From a virus: a stretch of DNA of 64,000 bases. A program made the translations under genes and the position numbers. Positions 5,145-55,495 of the stretch are shown here, piece by piece (the first letter of the stretch is position 1; each line of letters starts with the position of its first letter). The notes beneath the pieces were generated by a model that did not search any database, had not been told where the DNA came from, and worked only from the letters and a program-made list of their open reading frames with translations. The stretch lies in IMG/VR virus record IMGVR_UViG_3300008253_000110, positions 158-64,157 of that record; one strand, written 5' to 3'.

Positions 5145-5152
5145 TATTTATA
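5145..5152 (-). promoter_or_regulatory. T4-type late promoter (TATAAATA)
   Basis: Exact match in intergenic DNA about 36 nt upstream of the ATG at 5109. Confidence 0.65.
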
Positions 5153-28937: not shown

Positions 28938-28940
28938 AGT

Positions 28941-29801: not shown

Positions 29802-29803
29802 TT

Positions 29804-30289
29804 CTAAATTTTCACGAATTGATATAGACTTATCTCTGGTAATGTTGATATTATAACTTGTCTATTATCTTCTGTTAAACTATCAAAAAATAATATAGTT
29901 TTATCTTTATCCGATATTATAAACTTATCCCAAAAATTCCATACACGAACATCCACACTATTATATATTACACCATCAGCATCCTCAATTCCGTCATATA
30001 TTATAAATTCTTTATTACAAATATTAGTAACTTCAACATATTTCAATTTCCGGTTACTGTCTATTATAAAATCAGTTAATTTAAATTCTGTAGTTAATAA
30101 CTCATATGACTTTAATAATATAATAAAATCTAAATACTGTTGTTTAACATCACCATAAAAATCTGTAATTTTAAGTCCTCTATAAACTTGAGAGCTTACC
30201 CTATCAAAATATATTCCATTTTCTTTAATAAGTTTCTGTACAGATTTATAAGAACTTACATCAGTAAATTCTAATAAATTATTATTCAT
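29804..30289 (-). CDS. Hypothetical protein (161 aa)
   Basis: Tightly packed in the operon; no motif recognised. Confidence 0.6.
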   Translation of the reverse strand: MNNNLLEFTDVSSYKSVQKLIKENGIYFDRVSSQVYRGLKITDFYGDVKQQYLDFIILLKSYELLTTEFKLTDFIIDSNRKLKYVEVTNICNKEFIIYDGIEDADGVIYNSVDVRVWNFWDKFIISDKDKTILFFDSLTEDNRQVIISTLPEISLYQFVKI

Positions 30290-30294
30290 ATTAA

Positions 30295-31158
30295 TTATCC
30301 TTTAAACTCATTAAAGGATTCACCACCTATTAAAGTACCTTTAACATTACATACATTACATATCTCTATATCATTTCTACGGTAATTTAAAAATAACTCT
30401 CTCTGCTTTGTCTTTTTTCTCCACATATCAAGAAGGCCTGTATCATTAATATTACCTATTATTAAATTCTTTTTCCAATCATGTGGACAGTATTGATAAT
30501 CTCCATCAGGTGATACGAATAACATAAAAAATGGATAATAACAAGTCTTATTATCAGAATTATTATGTATTGATGGTACAGAACCTGCTCTATTATTAAG
30601 AGAAAAATTAGTAATGATATTTTCTATTGGATCAGACTCTAAAAATATTTCCTTTAATTCTATTCGCTTACCTGCGAACTTATTAGATATATCATTATAA
30701 TATTCTATATCATTGCGATTATATACTGATATTAATATCTCTACTTGTGAGTGCATTAAATTATACATCTTATCGATAAACTTAGAAGAGCCGAACTTTT
30801 TCTTATAACCATTAGTAACTAATCGAACAGTTAAGAGATCGTTTATTTGAGTTAGTTTCTCAAATATCTCTAGGAAATCCGGATGTAATGTAGGTTCTCC
30901 TAAACCAGCTAGATCTATTTGACCTGAAAAACCTACATCTCTTAGCTCTTCAACAATTTTATTTACTATATCCATAGACATAAATTGTACTTCTTGCTTA
31001 TTAAATGATCTATAATCTATTACAGAGTGAGGACATGACACACATTGTTTGTCACAGGTCCGGGATAGTGATAGTTCTATCTCTCCAAATATATCTATGC
31101 ATGACTCATTATCTACATTTCTCTTTTTATGGGATGTATCTATATTAAAAGTTTTCAT
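30295..31158 (-). CDS. Radical SAM protein with SPASM/Twitch domain (287 aa)
   Basis: CDKQCVSC, GLGEPTLH, and C-terminal CYYPF..CPHD..C..C. Confidence 0.93.
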   Translation of the reverse strand: MKTFNIDTSHKKRNVDNESCIDIFGEIELSLSRTCDKQCVSCPHSVIDYRSFNKQEVQFMSMDIVNKIVEELRDVGFSGQIDLAGLGEPTLHPDFLEIFEKLTQINDLLTVRLVTNGYKKKFGSSKFIDKMYNLMHSQVEILISVYNRNDIEYYNDISNKFAGKRIELKEIFLESDPIENIITNFSLNNRAGSVPSIHNNSDNKTCYYPFFMLFVSPDGDYQYCPHDWKKNLIIGNINDTGLLDMWRKKTKQRELFLNYRRNDIEICNVCNVKGTLIGGESFNEFKG

Positions 31159-31997
31159 TCCAATCGACCATCAATAACTGAATATCTATAGGCTTTATAC
31201 TCAGAATAATATCTTGTCTCCTCCAAGATATCTTCTTTAAGTAATACAATAGGGGCTTTAGTTGCAAAAGAAATATTATCTCCTTCTTTTTCTATAAACT
31301 TTAAAGTAGCCTTGTTAATAATCTCTTTATGTCTCTGTATAATATCAGGTGTAAATATCTCTTGAAATATTTTTAGGGATATTGATGTTATATTCCACGG
31401 CTGTCTTGATGTTAACTCTAGAGATGATATACCTATACCCACTCTTAAACCAGTCAATCCAGTCATCTTAGAGAATGATATAAGAGTCATGACATTTGAA
31501 TATAAAGATAACTTTTCTACATATTCTATATGAGTAGATAGACTATCTTTAACATAGATATCATATGATAGGTCAATAATAAAAAATTTATCAAGATTTT
31601 CTGATATATACGTTATTATATCTGAGTCAGAAACAGATAGACCATTTGAAGGATTTGGAGTTGATATGTATATAACAGAGGCCTCAGAGAAACCAGTATG
31701 CCTTATATTATAAAGCTCAGTATAATAATCAAGCATACCATAATTAGGTGATTTATAATATATACTCTGACCTTTAAATTCATATAGAGTGTCTTTTATA
31801 ACACCATCAGTACCATACCTAACAGAGATCATATCATTATTAACCCTATACATATTAGCTATAGTAGAGAATGTATCTCTATCATGTGGATAATTGTATA
31901 AGTCAGATATACTAATATTATCAATAACAACCTGTGATTTATCTAAGATGTACTTAGATATCGGAGTATTATTGTTTGTGTGGTAAACTGAAGTCAT
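31155..31997 (-). CDS. PLP-dependent class I/II aminotransferase or decarboxylase (HisC/CobD-like)
   Basis: Motifs YISTPNPSNG, IIDLSYD and SFSK.TGLTGLRVG. Confidence 0.85.
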   Translation of the reverse strand: MTSVYHTNNNTPISKYILDKSQVVIDNISISDLYNYPHDRDTFSTIANMYRVNNDMISVRYGTDGVIKDTLYEFKGQSIYYKSPNYGMLDYYTELYNIRHTGFSEASVIYISTPNPSNGLSVSDSDIITYISENLDKFFIIDLSYDIYVKDSLSTHIEYVEKLSLYSNVMTLISFSKMTGLTGLRVGIGISSLELTSRQPWNITSISLKIFQEIFTPDIIQRHKEIINKATLKFIEKEGDNISFATKAPIVLLKEDILEETRYYSEYKAYRYSVIDGRLE

Positions 31998-32391
31998 TGG
32001 TGTTTAGTATTATCCATTTTAAGTCAATGTAGTACACTATATTGTTACGGACTACAAAGTTTCTAATATCACTATCTATTAACCTAAAGTAGCTAGTGAA
32101 CATACCGTGATCTTTTATGTAGTTTGATATTAGTATACTATTTACTCTAGGACGTGGATCTTCTTCTATATATTCAAAATAGTAATAATCATCATCTTTA
32201 TATAAATAGTTAGGTACATTAGGATCCTTATTCATACTATATAAAAAGTCTGCAGTAAATCTCATGTTACTATTATCATCAACTTTTATCAATTTCATAC
32301 CATTGAATTTATAAGATAAGAAATACTTAGACTCTAAATCATCTCCCGCAGGATCTCCTTTCTCATATACATTATTTAATAATATCACCAA
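31969..32391 (-). CDS. Small protein-kinase/phosphotransferase-fold protein (140 aa, tentative)
   Basis: YYYFEYIE resembles a hinge segment; DSDIRNFV and YYIDL resemble the catalytic loop and Mg-binding motifs. Confidence 0.45.
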   Translation of the reverse strand: MVILLNNVYEKGDPAGDDLESKYFLSYKFNGMKLIKVDDNSNMRFTADFLYSMNKDPNVPNYLYKDDDYYYFEYIEEDPRPRVNSILISNYIKDHGMFTSYFRLIDSDIRNFVVRNNIVYYIDLKWIILNTNDFSLPHKQ

Positions 32392-33241
32392 AGTCCTTAT
32401 AAAAGTTTCTAACTACAGTTTTATATGTTTCATTTAAATTACCAAGATTAGAATAGAAATCACAAGAAATACATAAGTCTTGTCTTAAATCATCTCCTAT
32501 ATTATTATATATATCCCCTATATCATCATCATATATATTACCTATTTTAGTCTCTGACTTACCATCTATCCATGTACATACTAAGATATCACCATTAGGA
32601 GCAGTACCATTATCCATAATAGCATACTGACAAGGTTTGTCTATATCAGTCCAGCCTGTAGAAGCATGTGAGTGTGAGTGATTAACCCAATCATCATATG
32701 TTCTCATTGACTCTAGTATAACTCTAAAAAAAGTATCAGGTTTCTTTGAAGATCGTAATAATACCGCTAAATTAGGGATATATTTTTTGAATTTAATTAC
32801 ATTACTTTTAAGAATGTCATATTGTTTCTCTTTACCTAATGTAATACGTTTAAATTCCTTTAGTTCAGACCCATATAGAGAAATATATACACATAGCTTC
32901 TTTCTTTGTGCCAATGACTGCATAAATGAATCAGATAGCACTGATGAGGATACTGCTGATGTGTAGAAGTAATAATTATCTATACTATCTTTAGAGTCAA
33001 GATAATCGAAGAGCTCTAACAAATCATTATGGTTATAGGATAATATATCACCTACAGTAGGTGTCATTTCAATTATCCTTGTACCATTTTTTTCTACTTC
33101 ATCAATAATATATTTGAATTTATCTATTTCAAGTGGTGTATATTTCTGATAGATACCCCCTTCTATTCCTTTTAGACAGAAGTTACATTTAAGAAAGCAT
33201 GTCGATGTTAATGATACATTAAATATATGTGGAAAGTTCAT
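32372..33241 (-). CDS. Radical SAM protein with SPASM/Twitch domain (289 aa)
   Basis: CFLKCNFC and C-terminal CQY..CTW..IGNI..C..C. Confidence 0.92.
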   Translation of the reverse strand: MNFPHIFNVSLTSTCFLKCNFCLKGIEGGIYQKYTPLEIDKFKYIIDEVEKNGTRIIEMTPTVGDILSYNHNDLLELFDYLDSKDSIDNYYFYTSAVSSSVLSDSFMQSLAQRKKLCVYISLYGSELKEFKRITLGKEKQYDILKSNVIKFKKYIPNLAVLLRSSKKPDTFFRVILESMRTYDDWVNHSHSHASTGWTDIDKPCQYAIMDNGTAPNGDILVCTWIDGKSETKIGNIYDDDIGDIYNNIGDDLRQDLCISCDFYSNLGNLNETYKTVVRNFYKDFGDIIK

Positions 33242-34031
33242 TATAAGGGATAATCCGTGTGTCTGGAAACTTTTTTAGCATTACTGTACATATCTTAGCA
33301 TAACACTCTTCTAAGTTATATTTTTTAGAAGCCTGCTTCAACTGAGACTTTTCATACTCTGTAATCCATTTATTAGCAGCTGTATTAAATTGGTTGTAAG
33401 TTGTAGTAAAAATAGTATTATCTTCTTCTTCTATATATTGGTAAAATGACTCTAGAATACAATTACGTTTATTAGGATTAATTAGATCAGTATGTTCTAT
33501 ATTAAGAAAGTTTAATCTTGCATACTCAAACTTATCATTATCATCAACTAGTTCTTTAACATATGCATCTAACACCTCTGAAAAGGTACCTTCACCCCTT
33601 TCTATGTAGTTATAAAAAGTAGTAAAGAATGCAATAGTAATATTTCTGGAGATATTAATTTGCTTCAATACATAATCTTGATAAAGGACATTAATATCTT
33701 TAGATAGTGTTTCCTTAGGGTGGTGAATACCTGTGGATTTAGATAGTATACAGTTTTCTTTAGCTTTTATAAGAAATGCATAGTTAATATAGTTTTCATA
33801 TAAGGTACAACTCTCTTTAAACACTAATTGGTTTTTATATAGTTTAAAAGCGTCCCTAATAGATATATTAAAATCTTTATAAAGGTTTATTATAGAGGAT
33901 TTGGGAGAACCTAAGGAATCCTCTACTGAACATCTTATATTTGGAGCTTCTTCTAATAAGCGAATTAATGTATTTTTACCACAATTATCTATACCATATA
34001 CAGTTATTATCTTTTTCTTTCTATTAGTCAT
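33219..34031 (-). CDS. Hypothetical P-loop-like protein (270 aa)
   Basis: N-terminal ITVYGIDNCGKNTL resembles the Walker A loop of NMP-kinase/sulfotransferase-type folds. Confidence 0.45.
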   Translation of the reverse strand: MTNRKKKIITVYGIDNCGKNTLIRLLEEAPNIRCSVEDSLGSPKSSIINLYKDFNISIRDAFKLYKNQLVFKESCTLYENYINYAFLIKAKENCILSKSTGIHHPKETLSKDINVLYQDYVLKQINISRNITIAFFTTFYNYIERGEGTFSEVLDAYVKELVDDNDKFEYARLNFLNIEHTDLINPNKRNCILESFYQYIEEEDNTIFTTTYNQFNTAANKWITEYEKSQLKQASKKYNLEECYAKICTVMLKKFPDTRIIPYNELSTYI

Positions 34032-34860
34032 TATACTTAGGATACTCTAGCATTAACGTACATTCACAAAACTTTAATTTGCAAGTTGATATTAATAAAT
34101 CCTCCTTTGATATTTTTAATTTATATGTTTCTTTAGTACAATTATTTTTAAACTTCCCATTATAGTCTATATCAATAAACATTGGCCTACATTGTTTATT
34201 CTCAAATCTATTAGACCCTGTAGCAAATGATATGAAATGAGATGGATTAACAGCATCCGCAAGTTCCTTTTCAAATACTTTTATAATATCATCAGAGTAA
34301 TTAGATTTAAACCCAATTGATTCTATAGGTGTTAAATAGTTTAATTCATACGGTATACTAAGCTTAAGTAATTCTGCTATTCGTTCTTTTGTTTTACGAT
34401 GATAGATAGGGTCTGGATGGATATTTACTATAACAAGAGTCTTTGATGATATATCCTTTAATCTTTTGAAAAAACTATCTAAGTCATATTCAGGATGATA
34501 AGAAGCTTTAATAGTTATATTATTAAGTGAATGTACTAACTCAACTCTCTTAGATAGATTGGTTATAATAAAGGTATTCTCAGAAGTTCTTGATTCTATC
34601 TTTTGAACCTCTGATATAATAAAATCAATATGTTTTGATAATAAAGGTTCACCACCAAGTATCTCTAGATTATACTCAAAATCAATGAGTTTTAGTCTAG
34701 CTATTACCAGTCGAATGATACGTCTTTCTTGTTTTGTATTAATTTTCTCTGATATATTTAATTCAGAAGCACAACAATATGTACAATGATAGTTACATCT
34801 ATTGTTTATCATCCATGAGAATGTAGGTATCGCTTTTTCAGAACCAGCTATTAGTGTCAT
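34024..34860 (-). CDS. Radical SAM protein (278 aa)
   Basis: CNYHCTYC, LGGEPLL, and a C-terminal Cys cluster (CRP..C..C..C.C). Confidence 0.93.
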   Translation of the reverse strand: MTLIAGSEKAIPTFSWMINNRCNYHCTYCCASELNISEKINTKQERRIIRLVIARLKLIDFEYNLEILGGEPLLSKHIDFIISEVQKIESRTSENTFIITNLSKRVELVHSLNNITIKASYHPEYDLDSFFKRLKDISSKTLVIVNIHPDPIYHRKTKERIAELLKLSIPYELNYLTPIESIGFKSNYSDDIIKVFEKELADAVNPSHFISFATGSNRFENKQCRPMFIDIDYNGKFKNNCTKETYKLKISKEDLLISTCKLKFCECTLMLEYPKYND

Positions 34861-35684
34861 AAGTCGTATTTACATGTATACATACACCCATTAAGGGATG
34901 TTGTAATTGAATTACATTGAGACTCTTGATCTTCAAGTTGTATCATCTCATAATTATCTATATTATATTTTGTTTTTGTGGTCCTTCTCGCTATTACATC
35001 ACATGGATATATATTACCTATCTCTGATACAAATATATACTTTGTATACTTAGGTTTAAGTCTAAACACTCTATTGAATTGGGGTTTATCTTTAAATACT
35101 TTATCTGCAGGTATAATATATGTAGAAAAATCTGAAGGGTATTTAAGTTTTGAGGAGGTATATCGTGTATCTCGAACTTTTAGATTATCATATTTTTTAC
35201 GCATAGCATCTTCTTGATTTTCATTATGTAGATACCTAGTAAATACAACACAAACATTAATACCATTCGTATTCATATACTCTATATTTTTATCAATAGC
35301 TTTTAGTTTTCTCCCTGGTCTGGATATCTGTTGTGTTTTATTATCAATACCATCTATAGCTATTTCTATTATATGCCTAGATGGAAGTGCCTGACTTAGT
35401 GAGTGTAGTGTACGTTTTTGTATATTACCATTAGAATATATCTCAACATATACAGACAGAGAAGATAGGAACTTAATGATATCTTTATGTTGTGTTGGTT
35501 CCCCTGCATTACCACATAGTATAATTTTATTTAAATTTTTAAGTTTTGAAAGGAATTGAAGGAGTTTATCTATATTAATTGAATTTAATATAATATCATT
35601 ATTATGTCTAAAACATAAAGGACATCCTGCATTACATAGATTTGTTAGTTCTATCTCTACTACTTCTATATTGTCTAGATACAT
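34857..35684 (-). CDS. Radical SAM protein (275 aa)
   Basis: EIELTNLCNAGCPLC, CGNAGEP, YPCD and C..C. Confidence 0.92.
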   Translation of the reverse strand: MYLDNIEVVEIELTNLCNAGCPLCFRHNNDIILNSINIDKLLQFLSKLKNLNKIILCGNAGEPTQHKDIIKFLSSLSVYVEIYSNGNIQKRTLHSLSQALPSRHIIEIAIDGIDNKTQQISRPGRKLKAIDKNIEYMNTNGINVCVVFTRYLHNENQEDAMRKKYDNLKVRDTRYTSSKLKYPSDFSTYIIPADKVFKDKPQFNRVFRLKPKYTKYIFVSEIGNIYPCDVIARRTTKTKYNIDNYEMIQLEDQESQCNSITTSLNGCMYTCKYDL

Positions 35685-36742
35685 TCTCTATCAATTTCTA
35701 TCGTGGAACAATGTATACCTCCAGCAAATAACTTATTATGTCGTAGCTGTACAGGTATTACTTTATAACTATTTTCTTCAAGGACTTTAATAGTAGAGTG
35801 TGCATCATTATTTACTAGTATTGTATTCTCATCAATATTAAGCACATTAATATCCATACCCCCTTGTGTTGCAAATCCTTCTCCATCTTCTATAGACCTT
35901 TGAGGGAATATATATTTAAAATCATCAAACTCAGAAGGTAGTTGAGTTCTATAGTCTAACTCAGTAAGTATAGGATTAGCTAAGAATACTTTATCTGATA
36001 TAATATTTAGTAACCCATCTATGTGATTATCCGTAAATTCTACATAATATACCTTAATAGGTAGTACTCTCTTTAACCATTTGTATCCAAGATAATGGTT
36101 AATATTAGATATATTAATAACAAGAACATCTTTATATACAATACATTGAGCTGCATCAAAGGATATATCGTATCCTTTTAAATCTAATGACTTATAGTCT
36201 CTCTTGATTCTCCAATTATCAGTATCAGTAGAGTCTTTTTCTAATTTAGGTTCAGGGGCTTTGATCCATATCTTATCTAGTTTACGGAAAATATTATATA
36301 ATAACTTGGTTTCTTGTACACGACTTCGTATAAGTACTGGAGTTTCTATTAAGTAATCATGGCACATTAATGTTAAATCTCTAACATTACCTGCACCCGA
36401 CATATAAGTTGTGTAATTAAAAGTTTTTATAGGGATTAATGTATCTACAGACTCTGGTCTATGTACAATTATACCTAAATCTTCTAATGTAGTTGCTAGT
36501 GTATCTAAATCATCTTGTCTTTCTTTAAGTATATTGTGGTTTATAGATATATTTTCATTACCTGCATTGTATTGAGATACAGTAAGATTATCTCTAAAGA
36601 AATGTTTAAATGTAAAGTCAACCATCTTTGTAGGTATATTTAATTCTTTTCCTACAATTATTTCCTTTAATATAGCGAATGGGTTATTAATCATAATTCT
36701 GGTATATCCTCCTGTGGTTGTATTATAGTGATAGGTCTCCAT
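35675..36742 (-). CDS. Amidinotransferase (glycine/inosamine-phosphate amidinotransferase family, 355 aa; true start may be slightly downstream)
   Basis: VHRP, NVRD, FDAAQ, HIDG and GGIHCST match the Asp/His/Cys catalytic pattern of guanidino-group-modifying enzymes. Confidence 0.87.
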   Translation of the reverse strand: METYHYNTTTGGYTRIMINNPFAILKEIIVGKELNIPTKMVDFTFKHFFRDNLTVSQYNAGNENISINHNILKERQDDLDTLATTLEDLGIIVHRPESVDTLIPIKTFNYTTYMSGAGNVRDLTLMCHDYLIETPVLIRSRVQETKLLYNIFRKLDKIWIKAPEPKLEKDSTDTDNWRIKRDYKSLDLKGYDISFDAAQCIVYKDVLVINISNINHYLGYKWLKRVLPIKVYYVEFTDNHIDGLLNIISDKVFLANPILTELDYRTQLPSEFDDFKYIFPQRSIEDGEGFATQGGMDINVLNIDENTILVNNDAHSTIKVLEENSYKVIPVQLRHNKLFAGGIHCSTIEIDRECI

Positions 36743-37698
36743 TTCTTAAACTCTAGACCATCATAACAAGCCTTATTAAGACAATACTTATTCTTTATCT
36801 CTATATCTTCTGATATATCTTGTATACCTATGTTGTTATAAAAGTCGTCATTACACCTATACATCTTTAGGTTATGGTCTATAACAAGATTCTTAGTACC
36901 ACACTCACACTTCATAAACCTTACTTGTTTATGTATATCTTTAGCTTTCACCATAGAATAGTTAACAACCTTATCATCTACCTGAAAATTAAATCCCTCT
37001 TCAAGATAATTAAGTAGGAAAGGATATTTCTGTGTAAAATATCTAAATTCAAATGATTTAATATCACCTTGATCCGAAGGATATAATTGAGCTTCTCTTG
37101 AATTAATAACTCCTAAACCAATTTCTGTGAATTTTATCTTGACTTTATTATCAAATTCATGTATCATTAACTTCAACTCTTTCATAAATTGTTCTTCATT
37201 TAGATATTCTGTAGAAGGAAATATATTACCTAATGCATTATACTTCTTTAATATTTTAAGCTTATCTATTAGATCTTCAATCTTCTGTTTATTAAGATGT
37301 ACAGAAGTTGATATATCTAGTGTATGATCTTTATATAATTCTAATGTATTAAGAAATCTTAATAGTCTTTTAACATTCATAGAACCATTAGTCTGAGTTT
37401 GTATGAATAGTTTCTTATGTCTGTGTCTTTTAGTAATCTCATAGTGTAAGTACTCATAATACTTAGATAGAGTAGGCTCACCACCATAGAAATATATAAA
37501 GATAGATTGATAGGGTTTTAATACATTATCAAGCTTATCTAATACTTTATTACAATCCTCTTTTGACCATTCATACGAATTATTATCATATTCAGTACAG
37601 AACCAACAGGCTTGATTACATCTAAATGATGGTTTTAATGTTACTTTAAAGTCGAATGTAGGATACTCATCTGTTGGTATTAATTCAAATAGATTCAT
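36691..37698 (-). CDS. Radical SAM protein (335 aa)
   Basis: CNQACWFC, FYGGEPTL, and C-terminal CECG..C..C..C. Confidence 0.93.
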   Translation of the reverse strand: MNLFELIPTDEYPTFDFKVTLKPSFRCNQACWFCTEYDNNSYEWSKEDCNKVLDKLDNVLKPYQSIFIYFYGGEPTLSKYYEYLHYEITKRHRHKKLFIQTQTNGSMNVKRLLRFLNTLELYKDHTLDISTSVHLNKQKIEDLIDKLKILKKYNALGNIFPSTEYLNEEQFMKELKLMIHEFDNKVKIKFTEIGLGVINSREAQLYPSDQGDIKSFEFRYFTQKYPFLLNYLEEGFNFQVDDKVVNYSMVKAKDIHKQVRFMKCECGTKNLVIDHNLKMYRCNDDFYNNIGIQDISEDIEIKNKYCLNKACYDGLEFKKWRPITIIQPQEDIPEL

Positions 37699-38731
37699 AA
37701 TATCCTTTACGATAATGTATAGGATTATATATCAATTCACCTTTTATTGCTAAGGGTAGAGTAGAGTTATTTTCAGTCTCAATACCATCACATATAAAAA
37801 AATACTTACATCCCATACATGATTTAGGTTTCATATATGTTTGATTTCTATTTTCTTTAGCTACTTTGAGCAGATGTTTTAATGAATCTTTTTTATATAC
37901 CTGAGGATCAACAGAATAGTCATATACCCCGATATTCCAATCATAGACATCCCATATATGTTGATATGTAGAGCATACATATTTCTCATACCCTTCCATG
38001 TAACAGTATGGAGTATATCTAACATTAATTATTTTAACTGCTGATTTAAGTATGTCAATAGACTTTTTTATTTCAGTGCATACTACATTATAATCTAATG
38101 GTATCTGTGTCTTAGCGTCATCCCAATGATTTAGGGGTAAGTAGTTAACCTCAAATACATCGGCATCGAGACTTTGAATTAGTGTAGAGAATTCTGATAA
38201 AGCAGTAAAGTTTTCCATAGTAACAGTAGTATTGATACGAACTTTAATACCTACTTCTCTACATAGATTGATAGCTTTAATAATACGATTAAATGCTCCT
38301 GATCGTCTTACTATTTTATCATGTATACTGGCATTAGAACCGTGAACAGAAAATAATATTTCTGTTAGACCTGCATTATAAGCTTTACGCATGAAGTCAA
38401 TCTTAGAAAATTTATGTCCGTTAGATAATGTAGATATACTAGAAAAGCCTTTATCTTTGGCATATTGTACTAACTCAAAAAAGTCTTTATGTATAGAAGA
38501 TTCCCCTCCAGAAAAGTCTATTTCTTCCATACCTGTATCCCAGAGATAATCAATACGTTTCTTTATAACATCAGTATCAGTACGAATATGAAGTTGTTCT
38601 CCGTAATAGCAGAACTCACAGTCATAATTACAATGAGTACCTGTGTCTAACTTAGCTCTTGAACATAGTTTGTCTTTATTTTCAGACTGAATCTTATGAT
38701 GTGATACAATGTTATAGTTTATTGGGCTCAT
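37685..38731 (-). CDS. Radical SAM protein with C-terminal CxxC-x4-C cluster (348 aa)
   Basis: CNYDCEFC, FSGGES and CMGCKYFFICDG. Confidence 0.93.
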   Translation of the reverse strand: MSPINYNIVSHHKIQSENKDKLCSRAKLDTGTHCNYDCEFCYYGEQLHIRTDTDVIKKRIDYLWDTGMEEIDFSGGESSIHKDFFELVQYAKDKGFSSISTLSNGHKFSKIDFMRKAYNAGLTEILFSVHGSNASIHDKIVRRSGAFNRIIKAINLCREVGIKVRINTTVTMENFTALSEFSTLIQSLDADVFEVNYLPLNHWDDAKTQIPLDYNVVCTEIKKSIDILKSAVKIINVRYTPYCYMEGYEKYVCSTYQHIWDVYDWNIGVYDYSVDPQVYKKDSLKHLLKVAKENRNQTYMKPKSCMGCKYFFICDGIETENNSTLPLAIKGELIYNPIHYRKGYYESI

Positions 38732-39668
38732 TATATATAATATTCTTAATAATATTAATTATGTCATCATTTTCCTCTAGGTTTAATGAATCAAAGTCCT
38801 CTTCAATATCTTGCATTCTATATTTAAGTCCTAAGTCTGTCTCAAGATACTCATCGTTTATTTTAGAATCGTATACGACTTGTTTATTATAATGTCTACA
38901 CTCAGCTATAAACCTAGGAGAACAATCATGCTTTCTTTCTATAGGTGTATAATAATACATAATAAATCTATTAAATAGATCCTTTGTAGGTACTTCATAA
39001 TATTTAATCCACTCAGAGTCTTCACCTTTATTTTCTGAGTTAGTAAGCACCATTATATGATATCCTTTATACTTATTAGATATTTTTTTAATTTGAGCTT
39101 CTGGAATATTACGACAATTCTTAGTAGAATATAGCATAATAGTTCTTAACCAGCCAGGGAATAATGCAGGTCGTTTAAGTCGTTTTAATCTAGAAAATAG
39201 TATTTTCTTTTTGTAATTAATACCATTAAGAGTTACTGGGTCATAAACTCTATCATCTTGAAGTATCCACACATTTTCTTTTGTATTATCTTTTATTTCT
39301 TTATCACCACAAGCCATATGAAAGATATTATCAAATATTAATGTTTTATCTTTTGTTGATAATACACCACCATCAGTAAAAATAATATTAGATCCTGATA
39401 CTAGTCTAGGTCTCTTTTTAAAAAGAGTATTTTGCTTTATATCTTCAAGTTCATTAGTATTAAAATCGTATTTCTCTTGAATAGCCTGAACAAACATATT
39501 CATATCTATATCTTCAGCTAATAATATACCAACTTTAAAATGGTTTTTTAATATATGGTAGTAATCAATGACTTCAAAAGTATGACCACATATGCCGTGG
39601 TTGTTATTACTCCATGAATAAGTCAACCATAATTCATATTCTTTAGGTAATTGTAGTATTTTACTCAT
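38712..39668 (-). CDS. Hypothetical, possibly glycosyltransferase-like protein (318 aa), paralogue of the next gene
   Basis: Shares DLF...Y.Y.....D..PR.I.E..YY.K with the 256-aa protein. Confidence 0.45.
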   Translation of the reverse strand: MSKILQLPKEYELWLTYSWSNNNHGICGHTFEVIDYYHILKNHFKVGILLAEDIDMNMFVQAIQEKYDFNTNELEDIKQNTLFKKRPRLVSGSNIIFTDGGVLSTKDKTLIFDNIFHMACGDKEIKDNTKENVWILQDDRVYDPVTLNGINYKKKILFSRLKRLKRPALFPGWLRTIMLYSTKNCRNIPEAQIKKISNKYKGYHIMVLTNSENKGEDSEWIKYYEVPTKDLFNRFIMYYYTPIERKHDCSPRFIAECRHYNKQVVYDSKINDEYLETDLGLKYRMQDIEEDFDSLNLEENDDIINIIKNIIYNEPNKL

Positions 39669-40435
39669 CCTAGCATTCCCTGTATCATCATATCGTTAGA
39701 GGATAATGTATAATTAGAAAGACCATTACTCTTAATATCATTATATCTAAGAGTAACAGAGTCTATTATATTCTCTAATTCCTCAATGATTTTAATTTTC
39801 TTAGAGTAATAAAAGGCTTCCGGAATTATTCTATTATTAGTATCACGTGAGCTATGTACATATACTATTGAAGATATTAATTCAAATAAATCTCCACGAC
39901 CTATATAATGTTCTTTCATTATAACATTATCTCTATTCCGATATTTCGAGAGTCCTAAGAATGGATACACTCCTGATACAAAGGTTTTATCTCCAGACTT
40001 TATAATATCTTTAAATATAGAAAAGTTTAATTTAAGGTAATTGAATACATCATAGTCCTGATAATCATATGATCCATAGTATGTTACACTTCTGTCATTC
40101 TTATATCTAAACATAGGATGAGGTACATCGGAGAATACATGAACATCTCCTGACAGGAATTCCTTTACATTATAGAACGATTTAATATCAACTAATAGAG
40201 TTTTCTGGAGATCAAGACTATATAAATTAGTTACATTAATTGATTTAATATTCTTTGGAGAAATAGAGTATTTTGATCTTAAGATATTGTTAACTAAATT
40301 TAAATCTTCTTTTGTGATTCCTGCTATGTATAGCTCAGTTTTGAGGTATACTGCATACTCAAATGCATAGAATAGAGATCCATTTATCTTATTATGTATT
40401 TGCCATTTATATACTACACCAATTCGCCTGCTCAT
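39665..40435 (-). CDS. Hypothetical, possibly glycosyltransferase-like protein (256 aa)
   Basis: DLFELISSIVYVHSSRDTNNRIIPEAFYYSKKI aligns with the 318-aa paralogue. Confidence 0.45.
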   Translation of the reverse strand: MSRRIGVVYKWQIHNKINGSLFYAFEYAVYLKTELYIAGITKEDLNLVNNILRSKYSISPKNIKSINVTNLYSLDLQKTLLVDIKSFYNVKEFLSGDVHVFSDVPHPMFRYKNDRSVTYYGSYDYQDYDVFNYLKLNFSIFKDIIKSGDKTFVSGVYPFLGLSKYRNRDNVIMKEHYIGRGDLFELISSIVYVHSSRDTNNRIIPEAFYYSKKIKIIEELENIIDSVTLRYNDIKSNGLSNYTLSSNDMMIQGMLG

Positions 40436-40437
40436 TA

Positions 40438-41070
40438 TTAAACATTTAACATCATATGACTTTTTATAAATTTGTCAGCTTTCTCCGTAACCTTATCTTT
40501 ATCTGTAAGAGTCATTATCTCTTTAAAAATATTAGAAAATTTAGAATTTAGATGGGATACTCTAGCAATCTCATCTTTATAATTTAAATATTCTTCTAAC
40601 TTGTTAATAAGCTCTTCATCACCAGTCTCTAATATACTTAGGTATACTTCCTCTCTATTACCATCATATATAAAGTATCCTTTAGAATTTAGTTCATTAT
40701 TAAGGATAATCCATGAGTAGAGTGCTACACCTGAAATGGATGCAAGTTCGGGTGTTATTAAAGCTCTAATTCTCCTAATCTCTACCGATTTAACATTCCC
40801 AATATCCTCAGGGTCTATATCCTCTACAATAACTTCTGACGGTAAAACTTCAAGAGTTTGAAGAGTTTTAGGAATTATTATATTTTTACATCCGTCGTTT
40901 AAACTTGTTTTAATCCTTTCAGCTGCCATTACAGAAAGCTTAAGATATTGTTCATTTGTATTAACAATATTATCTAATGTATTAGAAGTAATACCCGTAA
41001 CTTGCCAATGTGTTCCACTATCTCTAACTAATGCTAATTCATATATCATTTGTTTTTTTCTCCAATTCAA
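40438..41070 (-). CDS. Hypothetical protein next to the Cys-rich gene (210 aa)
   Basis: In operon orientation; helical C-terminus; no motif recognised. Confidence 0.65.
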   Translation of the reverse strand: MNWRKKQMIYELALVRDSGTHWQVTGITSNTLDNIVNTNEQYLKLSVMAAERIKTSLNDGCKNIIIPKTLQTLEVLPSEVIVEDIDPEDIGNVKSVEIRRIRALITPELASISGVALYSWIILNNELNSKGYFIYDGNREEVYLSILETGDEELINKLEEYLNYKDEIARVSHLNSKFSNIFKEIMTLTDKDKVTEKADKFIKSHMMLNV

Positions 41071-41102
41071 TAATTCTTTTTTCTAATTAAACAATGGTAC
41101 TA

Positions 41103-41606
41103 TTATGCAGTGTAATTACACTCGCAATTATTATTACAAGTACAGACAGAATTACAAGAACAATCGGAATTACAAATGCAATCCTTCCTAACAATTTCAT
41201 ATTTTTCATAGATCGACCTAGCGTAAATGTCAGGACCCGCCCAATCAGTAGCATCAATCAGCTCCCCATCTCTATCAGCCATAAATCCTTGCCCACCGGT
41301 AACTTTGTCTACCATAAAGTATAATTCCTCTACATGATTATCCGTAATAATAGTAGATGTTGTATAAGGAGTTGGTTGGGTGACGGTAAAATCATGATAC
41401 CTATGTTCATTCCATCTAGTTAATTCTGCTCTAATCTTTTGTCTTACCTCTTCTAATATGTCAACGTTTATAGGAGCTCCTTCAGCAACATTAGCCGTAG
41501 TAGTTAAGGGTCTATTTGTTAAACACCCACCCCTTGATCCTAGACCGTCACGACCAGTACTGTAACCCTCCCAATTAGCCACACAATTGTGCTCTAGACA
41601 CGACAT
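41103..41606 (-). CDS. Cys-rich protein with a C-terminal (CxCNxx)4 repeat; candidate radical-SAM substrate (167 aa)
   Basis: Ends in DCICNSDCSCNSVCTCNNNCECNYTA and lies immediately downstream of a SPASM radical SAM gene (2-nt gap). Confidence 0.75.
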   Translation of the reverse strand: MSCLEHNCVANWEGYSTGRDGLGSRGGCLTNRPLTTTANVAEGAPINVDILEEVRQKIRAELTRWNEHRYHDFTVTQPTPYTTSTIITDNHVEELYFMVDKVTGGQGFMADRDGELIDATDWAGPDIYARSIYEKYEIVRKDCICNSDCSCNSVCTCNNNCECNYTA

Positions 41607-41608
41607 AA

Positions 41609-42748
41609 TTATCTCCCCTGATTCTTTATACTGGATACAACCGCTCTATCGATTTCTCCAAATGTTTTAAAATACCCACACTGATTATTTATATATCTGT
41701 CCGTCCATTGCTCCATGAAATTAGACTTCACTGAATTGTCTAGTGAGGATACAGGGCAAATCATACAAGTTGTTGCAACACAATCTGTACATGTTGTTGG
41801 TACAGTTTTAATATAATTTGCATATTTTTGAGTTTCAATACCTAAATTCTCGACCCATTCTTTATCCATTATAGATCCAGAGCCCATTGATTCTTTATTA
41901 GGGGAATATAACGAGCCATGACAAGCATAAGATTTTCCAGTTACATCTATAGCGACCATATTAGCACCAGAGGCGCAATGTACTTTTTGTTCATTACCAT
42001 CAAACCAAGAACATAAAAAATGATCATGTTTCTTATAAAACTCTATTTCCTTTTTTGCTACTCTAAGCATAGCTGACCGAAATGTAGCTACAGATTCTTC
42101 AAGTTCAACATCAGGTAACTCATTCACATAATCTATTGTAGGTGCGTATGTTACCGCCGCATGCCCATCTAATCTATCATACAAAGCTTTATAGGAATCC
42201 CATGTCTCTTCAATATCTTTCATAGATTCTAAAGGTACAGTAGCTTTCATAGATACATTTATATTTTTTGTAATTAAGTATTCTAGATTAGCTAATACTC
42301 TTTCTGTTGTATCTGTATTCACACCCTGAACTCTATACTTTTTATTAATAACTTCACCGTCCCAAGATACCTGGATTCTAAATTTATCTAGAGCAGACTG
42401 TGGTACGGAGTCTAAAACATAATCCAGTCGTTTTCTATCTAGAGCATTAGTATACATGTGAAAAGATACTAAATCATTATCCCCAAATGTATTCATTATA
42501 TCAACAATTAATTTACCATTTAATGTAGGCTCACCTCCCCAAAATGATATATTAAAAGCACCAAAACGTTGTATAAACCATTCTGACTCAAGAATTTGAT
42601 TAATTTTAGCTTTTAAAACCTCTATTTTTACATTACTCAGAGTCTGTTTGTTTGTTTTCAGTCCTTCAAAACAATATGTACAAGACATATTGCAAAGAGC
42701 TGTAGTTGTAATCTCAAACGAAAACTGATTTCTTTTATTATTAAGCAT
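41609..42748 (-). CDS. Radical SAM/SPASM peptide or protein maturase-like enzyme (379 aa)
   Basis: CNMSCTYC, FWGGEPTL and SWDG, plus a full SPASM array CASG..CHG..CTDC....CMIC..C. Confidence 0.92.
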   Translation of the reverse strand: MLNNKRNQFSFEITTTALCNMSCTYCFEGLKTNKQTLSNVKIEVLKAKINQILESEWFIQRFGAFNISFWGGEPTLNGKLIVDIMNTFGDNDLVSFHMYTNALDRKRLDYVLDSVPQSALDKFRIQVSWDGEVINKKYRVQGVNTDTTERVLANLEYLITKNINVSMKATVPLESMKDIEETWDSYKALYDRLDGHAAVTYAPTIDYVNELPDVELEESVATFRSAMLRVAKKEIEFYKKHDHFLCSWFDGNEQKVHCASGANMVAIDVTGKSYACHGSLYSPNKESMGSGSIMDKEWVENLGIETQKYANYIKTVPTTCTDCVATTCMICPVSSLDNSVKSNFMEQWTDRYINNQCGYFKTFGEIDRAVVSSIKNQGR

Positions 42749-42962
42749 TAAGTATATCCTCTAATATGGAATCTAACTTCTCATCTGTTATTTTTTCTTT
42801 TTGTGGTTCAATTACTCCGATAAGGGCATTTGCTAATTGGGATACTTTTAAAGCTTCTTCCTGGAATTGAGGTATATCAGATAAATGCTTTGCAGCTTCA
42901 ATAAGATTAAAGGAGGCATTGGCCAAATGTTTATTTACATCATTTATACTATCACGAATCAT
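42741..42962 (-). CDS. Small helical hypothetical protein between two radical SAM genes (73 aa)
   Basis: Overlaps both neighbours and is helical/acidic. Confidence 0.6.
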   Translation of the reverse strand: MIRDSINDVNKHLANASFNLIEAAKHLSDIPQFQEEALKVSQLANALIGVIEPQKEKITDEKLDSILEDILNA

Positions 42963-43941
42963 GGAATTCTCTCCTTATTATATCTCTAGGTATCAAAGGT
43001 AATATTTCTTTTGTTTTATCATAACAATATTTATATATATCACAAAGTTCGGGTATTGGTCCATTCGACTTAATTTGCTCATACATGCAACCTTTATGAC
43101 AATAATCCTTTACACGACAAGTTGAGCATTCAGGCATAGAGTAAAACTGATCTATCTTCTCAGCTGCTTCTTTATCCCCAGTAAATCTGTCACATGTAAC
43201 GGACTCTCCAGTCTCTGTTAATGCATAAAGATTTCTTCCTACACCACACCCTTCAGCTGTAAATCCTTTATAATGATATCTTAATATATCACGAAGCCAG
43301 GATAGTATAAAATTAGGCATATCCTCCGTAATATTATTTTTGTACCACTCATACATTTCATCAATACCGATCTGGAGAAGTTTAACTGATTCCGGAGTCC
43401 ATGTCCCTCTATCTCTAACTAATGTTAATCCAGGATTCATTCCAAAATTTCGAGTTATATATAAATGATTTTCTAGTAAATTATAGTCAGATCCGGATAT
43501 CATAGAATGACATTTTAATCCAGAAAACAATTCTCGTTTAGCGTATAATACATCTAAAGAAGATAGATTGGAATCTCTAATAGGTCTTCTATCGTTTTGC
43601 CATAAGCCATCGAATGATATTGATATCTTAACATTTTCTTTTAAAAGATAATCTAGTATTCCAGGTGTTAGGGATATCCCATTAGTAGGCATAGCTAAGG
43701 CATAATTATCATCAACTTTCTTCATTGTTGATATAACTGACTTAACCATCTTCATCTGGAGAAGAGGCTCACCCCCGAAAAAGTCTATTTGTATAAGATC
43801 ATTAGGGTGCTCAAGTCTAAGTTCTTTAAATTTATTTATTATAGAATCATGAGATAAAGTATTCTTAGACCACTTATCCATTCCACAATATGAGCAGTTT
43901 AAATTACACCCTTCTGATAATAGAACATTTAATGTCTTAAT
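42952..43941 (-). CDS. Radical SAM/SPASM protein; the ORF track starts at 43881, but the reading frame extends upstream, probably from ATT at 43941
   Basis: In-frame upstream codons read IKTLNVLLSEGCNLNCSYCGMDK and contain the CxxxCxxC motif; then FFGGEPLL, SFDG, CGVG..CD..CSTC....CHKGC..C. In-frame stop at 43948-43950. Confidence 0.85.
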   Translation of the reverse strand: MKTLNVLLSEGCNLNCSYCGMDKWSKNTLSHDSIINKFKELRLEHPNDLIQIDFFGGEPLLQMKMVKSVISTMKKVDDNYALAMPTNGISLTPGILDYLLKENVKISISFDGLWQNDRRPIRDSNLSSLDVLYAKRELFSGLKCHSMISGSDYNLLENHLYITRNFGMNPGLTLVRDRGTWTPESVKLLQIGIDEMYEWYKNNITEDMPNFILSWLRDILRYHYKGFTAEGCGVGRNLYALTETGESVTCDRFTGDKEAAEKIDQFYSMPECSTCRVKDYCHKGCMYEQIKSNGPIPELCDIYKYCYDKTKEILPLIPRDIIRREFHDS

Positions 43942-44675
43942 AACGAATTAACCTCTAATATACTTTTTACTAAATCCATAGAGTATACAGAGGCAAAAGA
44001 CTCAGCATCTTTAGGAAGACACGGCCCACCAAATCCATACTTACCATCTGGACCAGGAACATCAAAAAGACCTGTACCCATCCGTGGTACTCGCTCTAGT
44101 ACAGATACTATTTCTTTGTAATCTATACCCTCTATCCCACATACTTTATATATCTCGTTTAAATATGTTATTTTTAGGGCGTTGAAGGTGTTCATAGTAT
44201 ACTTTAATATACAAGCTGTTTTTATATCTGTTAGATGTACATTCTTTGTGGAAACCTCAGAATATTTCTTAAATATAGCTAAAGTATGCTGTGATGTAAC
44301 AATAGAATTTGATCCTATTATTAATACATGAGGGTTAATGAAATCATGGTGGGCCGTTGCTCTAGACAAGAATTCCGGTACACATACTATATTATTAGAG
44401 TACCCTTTAATTAGGTCTGGAAGCACAGTAGATTTTATTATTATAAGACCAGAGTACTCAAGTTCTTTTAGATTCTCAAGTGCATTTAATAGTATTGTTG
44501 CTTCTATTTTACCGTTTACTGTAGGTGTTGGGAGGCATACAAATATACATTCTGTATCCATCATATCTTCGATAGATACATCATTATATAAAGGGTCCGA
44601 TATTATTTTATCTGTTTTGGTAAACCCTTTATCAACTGCTTTCCCAACAAAACCATAACCAAGAATACCAATCAT
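43929..44675 (-). CDS. UDP-glucose/GDP-mannose 6-dehydrogenase family protein (248 aa, lacking the C-terminal domain)
   Basis: Motifs GYGFVG, FVCLPTP, IIKSTV, PEFL, K...NTF.A.KI...NE and GFGGPCLPKD. Confidence 0.9.
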   Translation of the reverse strand: MIGILGYGFVGKAVDKGFTKTDKIISDPLYNDVSIEDMMDTECIFVCLPTPTVNGKIEATILLNALENLKELEYSGLIIIKSTVLPDLIKGYSNNIVCVPEFLSRATAHHDFINPHVLIIGSNSIVTSQHTLAIFKKYSEVSTKNVHLTDIKTACILKYTMNTFNALKITYLNEIYKVCGIEGIDYKEIVSVLERVPRMGTGLFDVPGPDGKYGFGGPCLPKDAESFASVYSMDLVKSILEVNSLLRH

Positions 44676-53895: not shown

Positions 53896-55452
53896 TTATA
53901 TTTCTAGTACTAAATTTATCGTTTCTGTTTGTGTTTCCGATCTATTAACAGGTGTTCTATTATCTAGAAATATTATATCACCTGAAAACCTTTTAACATC
54001 ATCGTACAGATGATTAGCTTTCTCATCACCATCATAAGTACTCGGTGGAGCAATAAAGGGTGTAGTACCAACAGGAGTAGTACCATAAGATTGATTTATA
54101 CCGGGTAGTCTTACAGAAGTACCATAAGGATGTGTCGATCCATATAATATAGGTGAAAATCCTGTTAAGTCATTCTGATGATATTTTATATAGGCTGTAT
54201 GGGTAGTGGTACCACTAACAGTTTCAGAAATAGTAACTTTATCATCAATAATACCATAAACAATATCACCAGACCACGCTGATGGAGCTAATTGAAAGAA
54301 TTTTCCTGTTAACCAAGAATCAACATCAGATACATCATCAACCTGAAACTTCAGAGTTTTAGTCAATGCATAACTAGGTCCTTCTAGAAGAACATTAGCT
54401 GAATCAGTTGGATTTTTAATTAAACCAATTTGTCTAAATGAACCGTCCTCTGCTATAAAAGCATCACCTTCAGACATCATTAGTTGCGCAGACACTGAAA
54501 CGAAATGAGCTCTTAATTCATTTGTAGGATTGTAACCAAATCCACCTTCTGGACCAATAACAACTAATCCAACTGCATCTGTAACTAAAGCACCATCTTG
54601 GTAAACTTCTACATGAGCTTCGGTGTAACCACTTCCTGGATTAGTAACAGTAAATCCAGTAATAACTCCACCAACTGGACTTATGTTATCTAACACACAG
54701 CCAGACCCATCCCCAACTACCTTAGCAGTAATAATTCCTGTCAGATTCTCGCTACCACCACCTACGGCTACTTTAACATTATATATAGCACCATCTATAG
54801 CATCTGGATAGGTATTACCTCCATTCATTGTCCAAGCTTCACGGTTATTTTTAGTTTCTGTAGCAGTAGCACCAACTAGTGAGTCTATATCCGGAACTGG
54901 TATAAATGCAGATGAGACATACTTATAATATTTTTGTGGGATAGTATATAGTTGTTTCCATATATAACCATCAGTACATTTTCTAATTGTACCATCGGAA
55001 TGATGAATAGTCCCGTTTGTAGGAGATATAGAACTTGTTGAAGCACCAGGAACTAAACACATCCATACAGTATAGTTATCATCCATAGCATAATATGGGT
55101 TATCAGTTTTAAACTCTAATTGCTCATCCCTATCATCGTATTCTGAAAAATTTTGACCAGAAAAAAGATTATATCTCTTTGTTGCAAAAGCTACAGAGTG
55201 CGAGCTTGCAGTAACAGAAGTTGAAGGCTCAAGTTTTTTCATTGATAACATGTTATGCCAGACAGAATGTCGTGTTGCATAATGGTTATCATACAATGTT
55301 TCGACATCAGCAGCGGTATCTGCGCCGGCCTCTGTCCATGAATCAGATTTCCCTATAAATAAGTAATATTCATCACCAGTTGAATCTTGATGATTTTTAA
55401 TTATTTGTTTTGTTGTTTCTAATCTAAATTGACTAGTAATAATAGCGCTCAT
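53896..55452 (-). CDS. gp8: Baseplate wedge subunit, T4 gp8-like
   Basis: MSAIITSQFR, YY.FIGK..W, ML.MKK, VW.CL, DGY.WK.LY, RQIGLI.NP, SGDIIFLDNR.PV.RS..Q.E.I.LV. Confidence 0.88.
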   Translation of the reverse strand: MSAIITSQFRLETTKQIIKNHQDSTGDEYYLFIGKSDSWTEAGADTAADVETLYDNHYATRHSVWHNMLSMKKLEPSTSVTASSHSVAFATKRYNLFSGQNFSEYDDRDEQLEFKTDNPYYAMDDNYTVWMCLVPGASTSSISPTNGTIHHSDGTIRKCTDGYIWKQLYTIPQKYYKYVSSAFIPVPDIDSLVGATATETKNNREAWTMNGGNTYPDAIDGAIYNVKVAVGGGSENLTGIITAKVVGDGSGCVLDNISPVGGVITGFTVTNPGSGYTEAHVEVYQDGALVTDAVGLVVIGPEGGFGYNPTNELRAHFVSVSAQLMMSEGDAFIAEDGSFRQIGLIKNPTDSANVLLEGPSYALTKTLKFQVDDVSDVDSWLTGKFFQLAPSAWSGDIVYGIIDDKVTISETVSGTTTHTAYIKYHQNDLTGFSPILYGSTHPYGTSVRLPGINQSYGTTPVGTTPFIAPPSTYDGDEKANHLYDDVKRFSGDIIFLDNRTPVNRSETQTETINLVLEI

Positions 55453-55487: not shown

Positions 55488-55495
55488 TATTTATA
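55488..55495 (-). promoter_or_regulatory. T4-type late promoter (TATAAATA)
   Basis: Exact intergenic match about 36 nt upstream of the gp8-like start. Confidence 0.65.

Follow-up and report, generated by a model that had tools for sequence, protein, structure and literature searches.

A phage Cys-repeat protein encoded directly behind a radical SAM/SPASM enzyme: a candidate stapled fibre tip in a T4-like myovirus

What use does a phage have for two radical S-adenosylmethionine (SAM)/SPASM enzymes encoded just ahead of a protein that ends in a strict Cys repeat? This question is raised by a gene module at positions 40,438 to 43,941 of a 64,000-nt stretch of viral DNA (positions 158 to 64,157 of IMG/VR record IMGVR_UViG_3300008253_000110), which we refer to as the window. 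The window is part of a T4-like myovirus, and the module sits within its tail-fibre region, flanked by baseplate wedge, hub and tail proteins and by a VrlC-like giant protein. Its genes are transcribed in the order dehydrogenase-like gene, enzyme A, 73-aa gene, enzyme B, 167-aa Cys-repeat gene and 210-aa open reading frame (ORF). Small secreted peptides and a single enzyme subunit, QhpC, are known targets of radical SAM/SPASM crosslinking; to our knowledge, virus particles are not. A prediction made earlier from the letters of this DNA (the original prediction) took the 167-aa protein for a precursor resembling those of peptides that are ribosomally synthesized and then modified post-translationally (RiPPs), with a leader of ~140 aa, and considered that it might be a virion protein. 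On balance, and with modest confidence, we favour the reading that the gene encodes a fibre-type phage protein whose Cys tip is stapled by enzyme B, not a leader plus core peptide.

The ORF, its length and the location of the repeat proved to be exactly as originally described. Residues 143–167 read CICNSD CSCNSV CTCNNN CECNYT-A, and further Cys are found at residues 3, 8 and 28. An exhaustive profile-free search assigned at least 80 clusters to the family (80 representatives, E < 1e-3), 44 of which were aligned (alignment A1). In this alignment, eight Cys, N152 and Y165 are invariant (columns listed: C143, C145, C149, N152, C155, C157, C161, C163 and Y165), and the C-terminal block takes the form DC[IV]C[NH]xD CxCNx[VI] CxC[HN]x[DN] CxC[NH]Y. 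Judged by this pattern, the Cys repeat is far beyond chance. The family consensus begins with MAC.G.HC..H.TGT.TC.GHR..C.TN, continues with a helix of the form I.A.dIe.LR..Ir.E and, after a variable middle, ends in ..Y..iR.DCICNSDCxCNAVCxCHNDCGCNY. Relatives range from 150 to 833 aa in length, and the long members (462, 789 and 833 aa) carry the terminal Cys block too, which is what fibres whose middle domain varies should show.

Neither the window protein nor any of the 44 aligned members matched Pfam, PHROGs or NCBIfam, and searches of the PDB by sequence, by family profile and with the Cys tail alone gave nothing meaningful (best match, a Dumpy fragment, E 0.13). Among isolates in the phage collection, none carries the family; a nucleotide search with the region and a protein search with the 167-aa sequence likewise found no match there. 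No virion proteome was found for any relative. A GGAG ribosome-binding site precedes the ATG of the 167-aa gene, which begins 2 nt past the enzyme B stop codon, an arrangement consistent with co-translation from an operon transcript.

We examined the pairing of enzyme B with Cys-repeat genes in both directions. The forward test covered 13 IMG/VR loci, which the family profile had retrieved, and 8 further contexts picked for divergence, among them the 789- and 833-aa forms and some members of ~25–30% identity. Every context read has an enzyme B orthologue directly upstream of the Cys-repeat gene (E 1e-49 to 1e-137), and the enzyme B stop and the Cys-repeat gene start often overlap by 4 nt in the relatives. 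In the reverse test, an enzyme B profile retrieved 79 IMG/VR loci, 43 with a strong match (not all independent lineages). The next ORF contains at least 6 Cys per 30 aa in 35 of these 43 loci, compared with a background of 29 out of 1627 other ORFs of the same loci with at least 7 Cys per 30 aa. The originally proposed link between enzyme and Cys repeat is, then, conserved wherever it was examined.

What follows enzyme B is not always the same repeat; its type and number shift with enzyme divergence. Type I, the window's type, consists of four copies of CxC[NH]xx. Type II, C[TA]C[NDQ]CNY, reaches ~11 copies and 35 Cys, and many of its members also end in NY followed by SD.RLK. Other homologues are followed by CxCxxR-type repeats, with units of ~11 residues and up to 38 Cys, or by Cxxx repeats (CQxx, CHSx). 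An enzyme that stays constant beside a Cys-repeat neighbour that diversifies is the mark of an enzyme–substrate pair, and this pattern, as far as gene order and sequence can tell, is hard to explain through shared ancestry alone and supports such a pair for enzyme B. Long Cys-repeat proteins lie directly behind enzyme B homologues in seven loci (Table 1), where CTCNCNY heptads, CxCxxR units or CQxx/CHSx tetrads supply 13–38 Cys.

The Pfam 38.1 entry PF27846, 'tSAM_targ_Cxxx_rpt', was met as a label on phage clusters that neighbour ours in the Atlas (by features and structure). The name points to proteins with Cxxx repeats, resembling the CQxx/CHSx proteins here, that are predicted targets of radical SAM enzymes; the window repeat, by contrast, is CxCNxx. 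Seen as a label only, the name suggests that curators have flagged a sister repeat type. Literature searches on phage radical SAM, fibre, thioether and tSAM/Cxxx terms returned no description of this system or of PF27846.

Where would such a protein act? Peptidase_S74 domains nucleate the trimeric folding of tail fibres and spikes and then self-cleave N-terminal to their Ser. In most relatives of the window protein, an S74 intramolecular chaperone, fused or split, comes directly after the Cys block. The sequence there reads ..CNY followed by SD.RLK..I., and the block is the last segment before the S74 cleavage site. When the 175- and 84-aa ORFs of L001, the closest relative (L numbers denote the loci of relatives), are joined, they give a full PF13884 match (E 2.6e-9, profile 1–56 of 58) that begins at the SD right behind ..CNY. 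Fused forms of 220–335 aa carry PF13884 in precomputed annotation, and a further search found >200 clusters of PF13884-fused proteins, all unnamed. Since S74 follows the block in the relatives, the block would be the C-terminal tip of a mature homotrimer. In T5 pb1, the S74 trimer guides folding of the fibre tip and is freed by cleavage between Thr1263 and Ser1264 with the help of Lys1269 (PMC4690869). The family has the Ser–Lys spacing of T5 pb1, with Lys at +5 of the cleavage Ser, and the relatives share the S-D-x-R-L-K start and full PF13884 with S74 fibres and spikes such as K1F endosialidase and T5 pb1. They differ from these in that the window copy has no such domain, many relatives split it over two ORFs, and a Cys repeat that has no solved counterpart precedes the cleavage site. 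We know of no S74 protein with a radical SAM partner. A fused relative compared with the isolate phage collection matched only S74 domains, in Brucella, Microcystis, Roseobacter and Rhizobium phage proteins.

Three C-terminal states occur in the family: fused S74, split S74 and absent, the last ending at ..NY. The window copy belongs to the absent class. Its protein ends in ..CNYTA, two residues beyond the cleavage position, and the PF13884 domain with its Ser...Lys pair, present in the relatives, is missing. Past the window copy's stop codon, the 53 nt that lead up to the following gene align with the 3' end of the 84-aa chaperone ORF of L001, and relative to L001 ~240 nt are gone between ..NY and ..DY. 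These data show that the window lineage lost the chaperone by deletion. The N-terminus is also altered: MSCLEHNC...GGC (41523–41606, minus strand) is degenerate relative to the consensus, one Cys and His residues having been lost. Given this degenerate N-terminus and the chaperone deletion, the window protein is a derived copy. The family is best described as widespread and unannotated, and the window protein as a chaperone-less member with a dedicated radical SAM/SPASM partner.

In the split state, seen in three lineages, the first ORF stops after SD.RLK..I.Y[CMLF], and the rest is read in the -1 frame from a TTG or ATG that overlaps the stop. The break point is conserved (L001, 3380–3430; L026, 3950–3975; L027, 660–690; L028, 8600–8625). 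Splitting turns the 'intramolecular' chaperone into an intermolecular one, or possibly marks a recoding site. A programmed -1 frameshift at the junction was considered as well. Because no slippery heptamer was found there and a TTG or ATG overlaps the stop in all three lineages, termination–reinitiation is more likely.

Does the N-terminal part of the protein serve as a leader? AlphaFold2 (AF2) models residues ~30–125 as a confident helical domain (predicted local distance difference test score, pLDDT, 80–92); a fold search with the model returned generic helical bundles only (Z ≤ 5.2). With a folded N-terminal part and relatives of 789–833 aa, the proposed ~140-aa leader finds no support, and the suggestion of a virion protein gains from the S74 domain that follows the Cys block in relatives. 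A classical exported RiPP, such as a bacteriocin-like ranthipeptide or sactipeptide whose unusually long leader is later removed, would account for a Cys-rich C-terminus beside SPASM enzymes. We consider it very improbable. Neither enzyme has an N-terminal RiPP recognition element (RRE), the cluster motif coming already at residues 12–19, and the Pfam scan of the window gave no PqqD-like match. No leader protease or ABC exporter was found near the Cys-repeat gene. Nor does an exported peptide agree with the folded N-terminal domain and the length of some relatives, with C-terminal S74 as the sole processing site in relatives, or with the position of the gene in a tail-fibre operon.

Both enzymes are, as predicted, radical SAM proteins with a full SPASM-type Cys set; they do not flank the Cys-repeat gene as had been supposed, both genes being upstream of it. 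Enzyme B carries its CxxxCxxC motif (CNMSCTYC) at C19/C23/C26 and matches PF04055 with 33.3 bits (cutoff, 29.5). Its seven C-terminal Cys (258, 276, 320, 323, 328, 331 and 357) are invariant in 15 orthologues (alignment A2) and form the SPASM pattern C258, G271-x4-C276, C320-x2-C323-x4-C328-x2-C331, C357. Enzyme A had been listed as a 309-aa ORF starting at ATG (42952–43881), which leaves its CNLNCSYC (43885–43908) in frame but upstream of the ATG; no ATG, GTG or TTG is present upstream of this motif. In eight homologues, the initiator Met of MKTL... falls exactly at the position of the ATT at 43941. Because of this alignment, we assign enzyme A a rare ATT start, which bears out the module end at 43941 given in the original prediction. 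The same ATT start (codon 43939–43941 in the window, minus strand) is kept in L001 (561–563), L002 and L004. Read from ATT, the ORF shares 13 nt with the end of the dehydrogenase gene, has CxxxCxxC at C12/C16/C19 and contains a canonical CX2CX5CX3C SPASM motif, CSTCRVKDYCHKGC, plus flanking Cys. The truncated ORF scores 28.6 bits against PF04055, and enzyme A reaches 25.5 bits against the TIGR04085 SPASM model, just under the 27-bit cutoff.

Among characterised maturases, PapB is the best NCBIfam match for both enzymes, and every family scores below its equivalog cutoff. Enzyme B reaches 80.5 bits against PapB and enzyme A 77.1 bits (cutoff, 340). Enzyme B also aligns over its full length with QhpD (TIGR03906; 54 bits, cutoff 453) and with anaerobic sulfatase maturases (anSME; 50.8 bits); PapB is followed for enzyme A by nif11-type maturases, SCIFF maturases and QhpD, all below cutoffs. 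The best solved relative of enzyme A is CteB (5wgg; E 2e-11 for the full form). Their alignment begins at CteB residue 97, past the N-terminal RRE of CteB.

Since the nearest characterised enzymes (PapB, CteB and QhpD) form thioethers, Cys thioethers to Asn or Asp are our best guess at the chemistry. QhpD is a SPASM enzyme that works without leader-peptide logic and crosslinks Cys to Asp or Glu within the protein QhpC. With enzyme B it shares the full-length TIGR03906 match, well below cutoff; QhpC differs as a substrate, being unrelated and without repeats, and belongs to a periplasmic enzyme of cellular rather than phage origin. In the ranthipeptide/SCIFF systems (PapB–PapA freyrasin, CteB–CteA, NxxcB), a SPASM enzyme is encoded beside a Cys-repeat substrate, as here. 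PapB builds six thioethers into its substrate's repeated CXXXD motifs, and an auxiliary cluster binds the Cys of the substrate (PMC12373016). The thioethers formed by NxxcB and CteB are saturated; for SycC, a related enzyme, abstraction of H at Asn C-beta has been proposed by analogy with NxxcB (PMC10989515). Unlike ranthipeptides, however, the substrate here is a folded protein of 167–833 aa, not a short leader plus core. The module lies in the tail-fibre region of a phage and lacks an RRE, an exporter and a leader protease; in relatives an S74 chaperone joins it, and its scores are far below the family cutoffs. By this comparison, the system would work like a ranthipeptide system, yet it falls outside the RiPPs in precursor form (there is no short leader–core precursor), in the lack of an RRE and in its distance from the family cutoffs (there is no equivalog-level maturase similarity).

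Of the repeat Cys of types I and II, 60–65% have an Asn or Asp at +3, a spacing that would permit small rings within the chain; C-x-x-N/D as a universal acceptor rule was rejected, being valid for these two types only. Enzyme B may instead act on the repeat by other chemistry, such as S–C-alpha linkage (sactionine), the type of Cys oxidation that anaerobic sulfatase maturases carry out, or some other reaction centred on Cys. The full-length alignments with anSME and QhpD besides PapB would fit this, as would scores under every family cutoff and the want of a constant N/D partner in repeat types IV and V. We nevertheless think it improbable: the closest characterised relatives by score, PapB and CteB, make side-chain thioethers, and a CxPxR-type sulfatase motif is absent.

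We propose the following mechanism. In the mature homotrimer, the Cys block would form the distal tip. With enzyme A and the 73-aa protein probably as helpers, enzyme B would staple the still-unfolded Cys tail: the substrate Cys would be held on an auxiliary cluster, and a 5'-deoxyadenosyl radical would take a side-chain hydrogen, giving a Cys-derived crosslink. Most likely, the products would be small intrachain thioether rings linking Cys to the Asn or Asp at +3, as in ranthipeptides. The stapled chain would then trimerise, aided by S74 where present, and the chaperone would cleave itself off to leave a covalently reinforced tip. The outcome would be a stapled, redox-insensitive fibre tip made within the reducing host cell. 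That many marine and other phages crosslink an S74-chaperoned trimeric fibre tip with a dedicated radical SAM/SPASM enzyme is a broader claim, which we put forward tentatively.

Several observations weigh against stapling by enzyme B. The reaction type is a guess, because NCBIfam scores are far below every equivalog cutoff, and the +3 N/D rule fails for repeat types IV and V. The Cys tail is unstructured in the AF2 model (pLDDT < 50), as expected for a model of a monomer, and the trimer and virion location are deduced from S74 rather than observed. Part of the synteny must reflect shared ancestry, because the type I contexts derive mostly from T4-like phages that are related to one another. 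An enzyme B homologue of ~27% identity occurs in Campylobacter CP220-like phages without a Cys-rich neighbour, which means that the enzyme B family also exists without one. His often replaces Asn at repeat position 4, and the CxC spacing of the block resembles that of metallothionein; the N-to-H exchange and this spacing suit metal binding as well as an acceptor role. Finally, the module shares its genomic island with sugar enzymes and with at least seven further radical SAM genes, none with an assigned substrate.

Several of these points would be expected under the main alternative, which we regard as unlikely: that the Cys block is an unmodified trimer tip locked by metal, Fe-S clusters or interchain disulfides, and that the neighbouring enzymes serve the sugar or cofactor chemistry of the island. 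T4 gp37 and gp12 and P2 gpV-type spikes bind Fe or Zn through HxH, and lambda gpL binds a 4Fe-4S cluster; such tail-protein tips carry short x-spaced ligand pairs that repeat along the three-fold axis. Were the block a triple beta-helix, CxC side chains from all three chains would similarly face the axis, as at the T4-type HxH iron sites. CxC every six residues, with Asn or His next and conserved small residues, would suit an inward-facing ladder, the N-to-H exchange and metallothionein-like spacing would suit metal ligands, and the S74 context implies a three-fold axis. A metallothionein-like assignment is compatible with the CxC pattern, yet no Pfam or NCBIfam match was obtained. Island sugar chemistry, for its part, would be served by UGDH, epimerase, DegT and PIG-L genes and a BlsE-like radical SAM enzyme. 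The known metal-binding tips differ, however, in using His ligands, or four Cys in gpL, and have no dedicated radical SAM enzyme. What a metal tip leaves unexplained is that one particular SPASM enzyme always immediately precedes the Cys-repeat gene, often translationally coupled to it, and that quite different Cys repeats follow distant enzyme B homologues. The two ideas are not exclusive, as unmodified Cys could still bind metal.

The CP220 group was considered as a cultured model and set aside on account of its Cys-poor context. There (L030, 5962–7131 and 7227–10706), the gene after the enzyme encodes 1159 aa, is Cys-poor and is annotated as an endolysin.

Table 1. Positions of the features discussed (window coordinates unless a locus is named)
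Feature	Position	Strand	Evidence
Cys-repeat protein, 167 aa	41103–41606	minus	ORF list; family of 80 representatives; alignment A1; AF2 model
(CxCNxx)x4 block, residues 143–166	41109–41180	minus	Invariant alignment columns; S74 begins right after block in relatives
Relic of Peptidase_S74 chaperone ORF 3' end, non-coding	41050–41102	minus	DNA alignment with L001
Enzyme B, radical SAM/SPASM, 379 aa	41609–42748	minus	PF04055; PapB best NCBIfam; A2 invariant columns
73-aa acidic protein	42741–42962	minus	Same-position homologues in relatives
Enzyme A, radical SAM/SPASM, 329 aa from ATT	42952–43941	minus	Homologue Met alignment; CteB, PapB and TIGR04085 matches
203-aa downstream partner (most likely start)	40438–41049	minus	phrog_25260; synteny; AF2
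Short nucleotide-sugar dehydrogenase-like gene	43929–44675	minus	TIGR03026, E 6e-35; synteny
Long Cys-repeat ORF	L052 5129–5806
Long Cys-repeat ORF	L056 5134–5871
Long Cys-repeat ORF	L061 5106–5717
Long Cys-repeat ORF	L091 5326–6093
Long Cys-repeat ORF	L095 5173–5832
Long Cys-repeat ORF	L075 5346–6353
Long Cys-repeat ORF	L064 5160–5663

The remaining genes of the module recur in the relatives to varying degrees; enzyme A, a ~75-aa gene and a 203-aa gene are common in their loci, not universal. The dehydrogenase-like gene heads the module in most relatives. The 73-aa protein is acidic, free of Cys and, from its sequence, probably helical, with no match in Pfam, PHROGs or NCBIfam. Homologues occupy the same position between the enzymes in the type I clusters L001–L017, L021, L022, L026 and L028. 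It was considered as the true precursor peptide and rejected, being Cys-free, conserved, acidic, probably helical and without a modifiable repeat; it is possibly an adaptor or chaperone. Downstream, the 210-aa ORF (40438–41070) begins at a TTG at 41070, and its homologues begin at the position of the ATG at 41049. By this comparison, the gene most likely starts at that ATG and encodes 203 aa. The 203-aa protein belongs to phrog_25260, and in almost every type I locus its gene comes after the Cys-repeat/S74 gene. AF2 models it as an N-terminal beta domain plus a helical bundle (mean pLDDT 82.7), and a fold search returned only generic three-helix matches, none informative.

Transcription of the Cys-repeat gene had been suggested to benefit from a late promoter, TATAAATA, ~80 nt upstream. 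The motif is present at 41686–41693 (minus strand), as noted, and its promoter role has been dropped. The copy forms codons R-Y-I-N-N of enzyme B and appears to be a by-product of coding; the window contains 13 copies of TATAAATA compared with 20.7 expected; and the copy at 41686–41693 is common only to close AT-rich relatives, being missing in more distant ones. Two other copies, at 5145–5152 and 55488–55495 (both minus strand), are intergenic and lie ~36 nt upstream of minus-strand gene starts (4705–5109 and 53896–55452). By their placement, these would be better candidates for T4-type late promoters than the copy at 41686–41693.

The module is located in an AT-rich island of ~18 kb (26.8–44.7 kb) with at least nine genes carrying radical SAM signatures, together with epimerase, DegT-type aminotransferase, PIG-L and dehydrogenase (UGDH) genes. 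The remainder of the island (26816–40435, minus strand) contains at least seven more radical SAM-type genes, several of ~280 aa, along with an amidinotransferase-like gene, DegT-type aminotransferases, an epimerase and a PIG-L deacetylase. One of these radical SAM genes, of 348 aa, is HxsC/NirJ/BlsE-like; BlsE is a sugar decarboxylase. Island genes of 256, 318 and 348 aa accompany the Cys-repeat module in most relatives. Public sequencing runs with this DNA come from marine, sediment and vent metagenomes; all are DNA runs, with no RNA run among them. Marine pelagimyophages are described as carrying radical SAM cassettes in a host-recognition cluster (PMC7029224), and a T4-like environmental genome as carrying 12 radical SAM genes (PMC5332604), in both cases without a proposed function.

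If the pairing of enzyme B with Cys-repeat proteins holds, it would account for at least some of the radical SAM cassettes that marine T4-like phages carry in their host-recognition regions (PMC7029224, PMC5332604). It would also provide leader-independent enzymes for several natural repeat scaffolds, useful for stapling of peptides and proteins. The CxCNxx, CTCNCNY, CxCxxR and Cxxx repeats would, if the proposal is true, constitute a new protein-scale branch of ranthipeptide-like chemistry, and the fibre protein would be the first structural protein of a virus to be modified post-translationally by a radical SAM enzyme. For the phage, it would be a new way to harden a receptor-binding or piercing tip inside a reducing cell.

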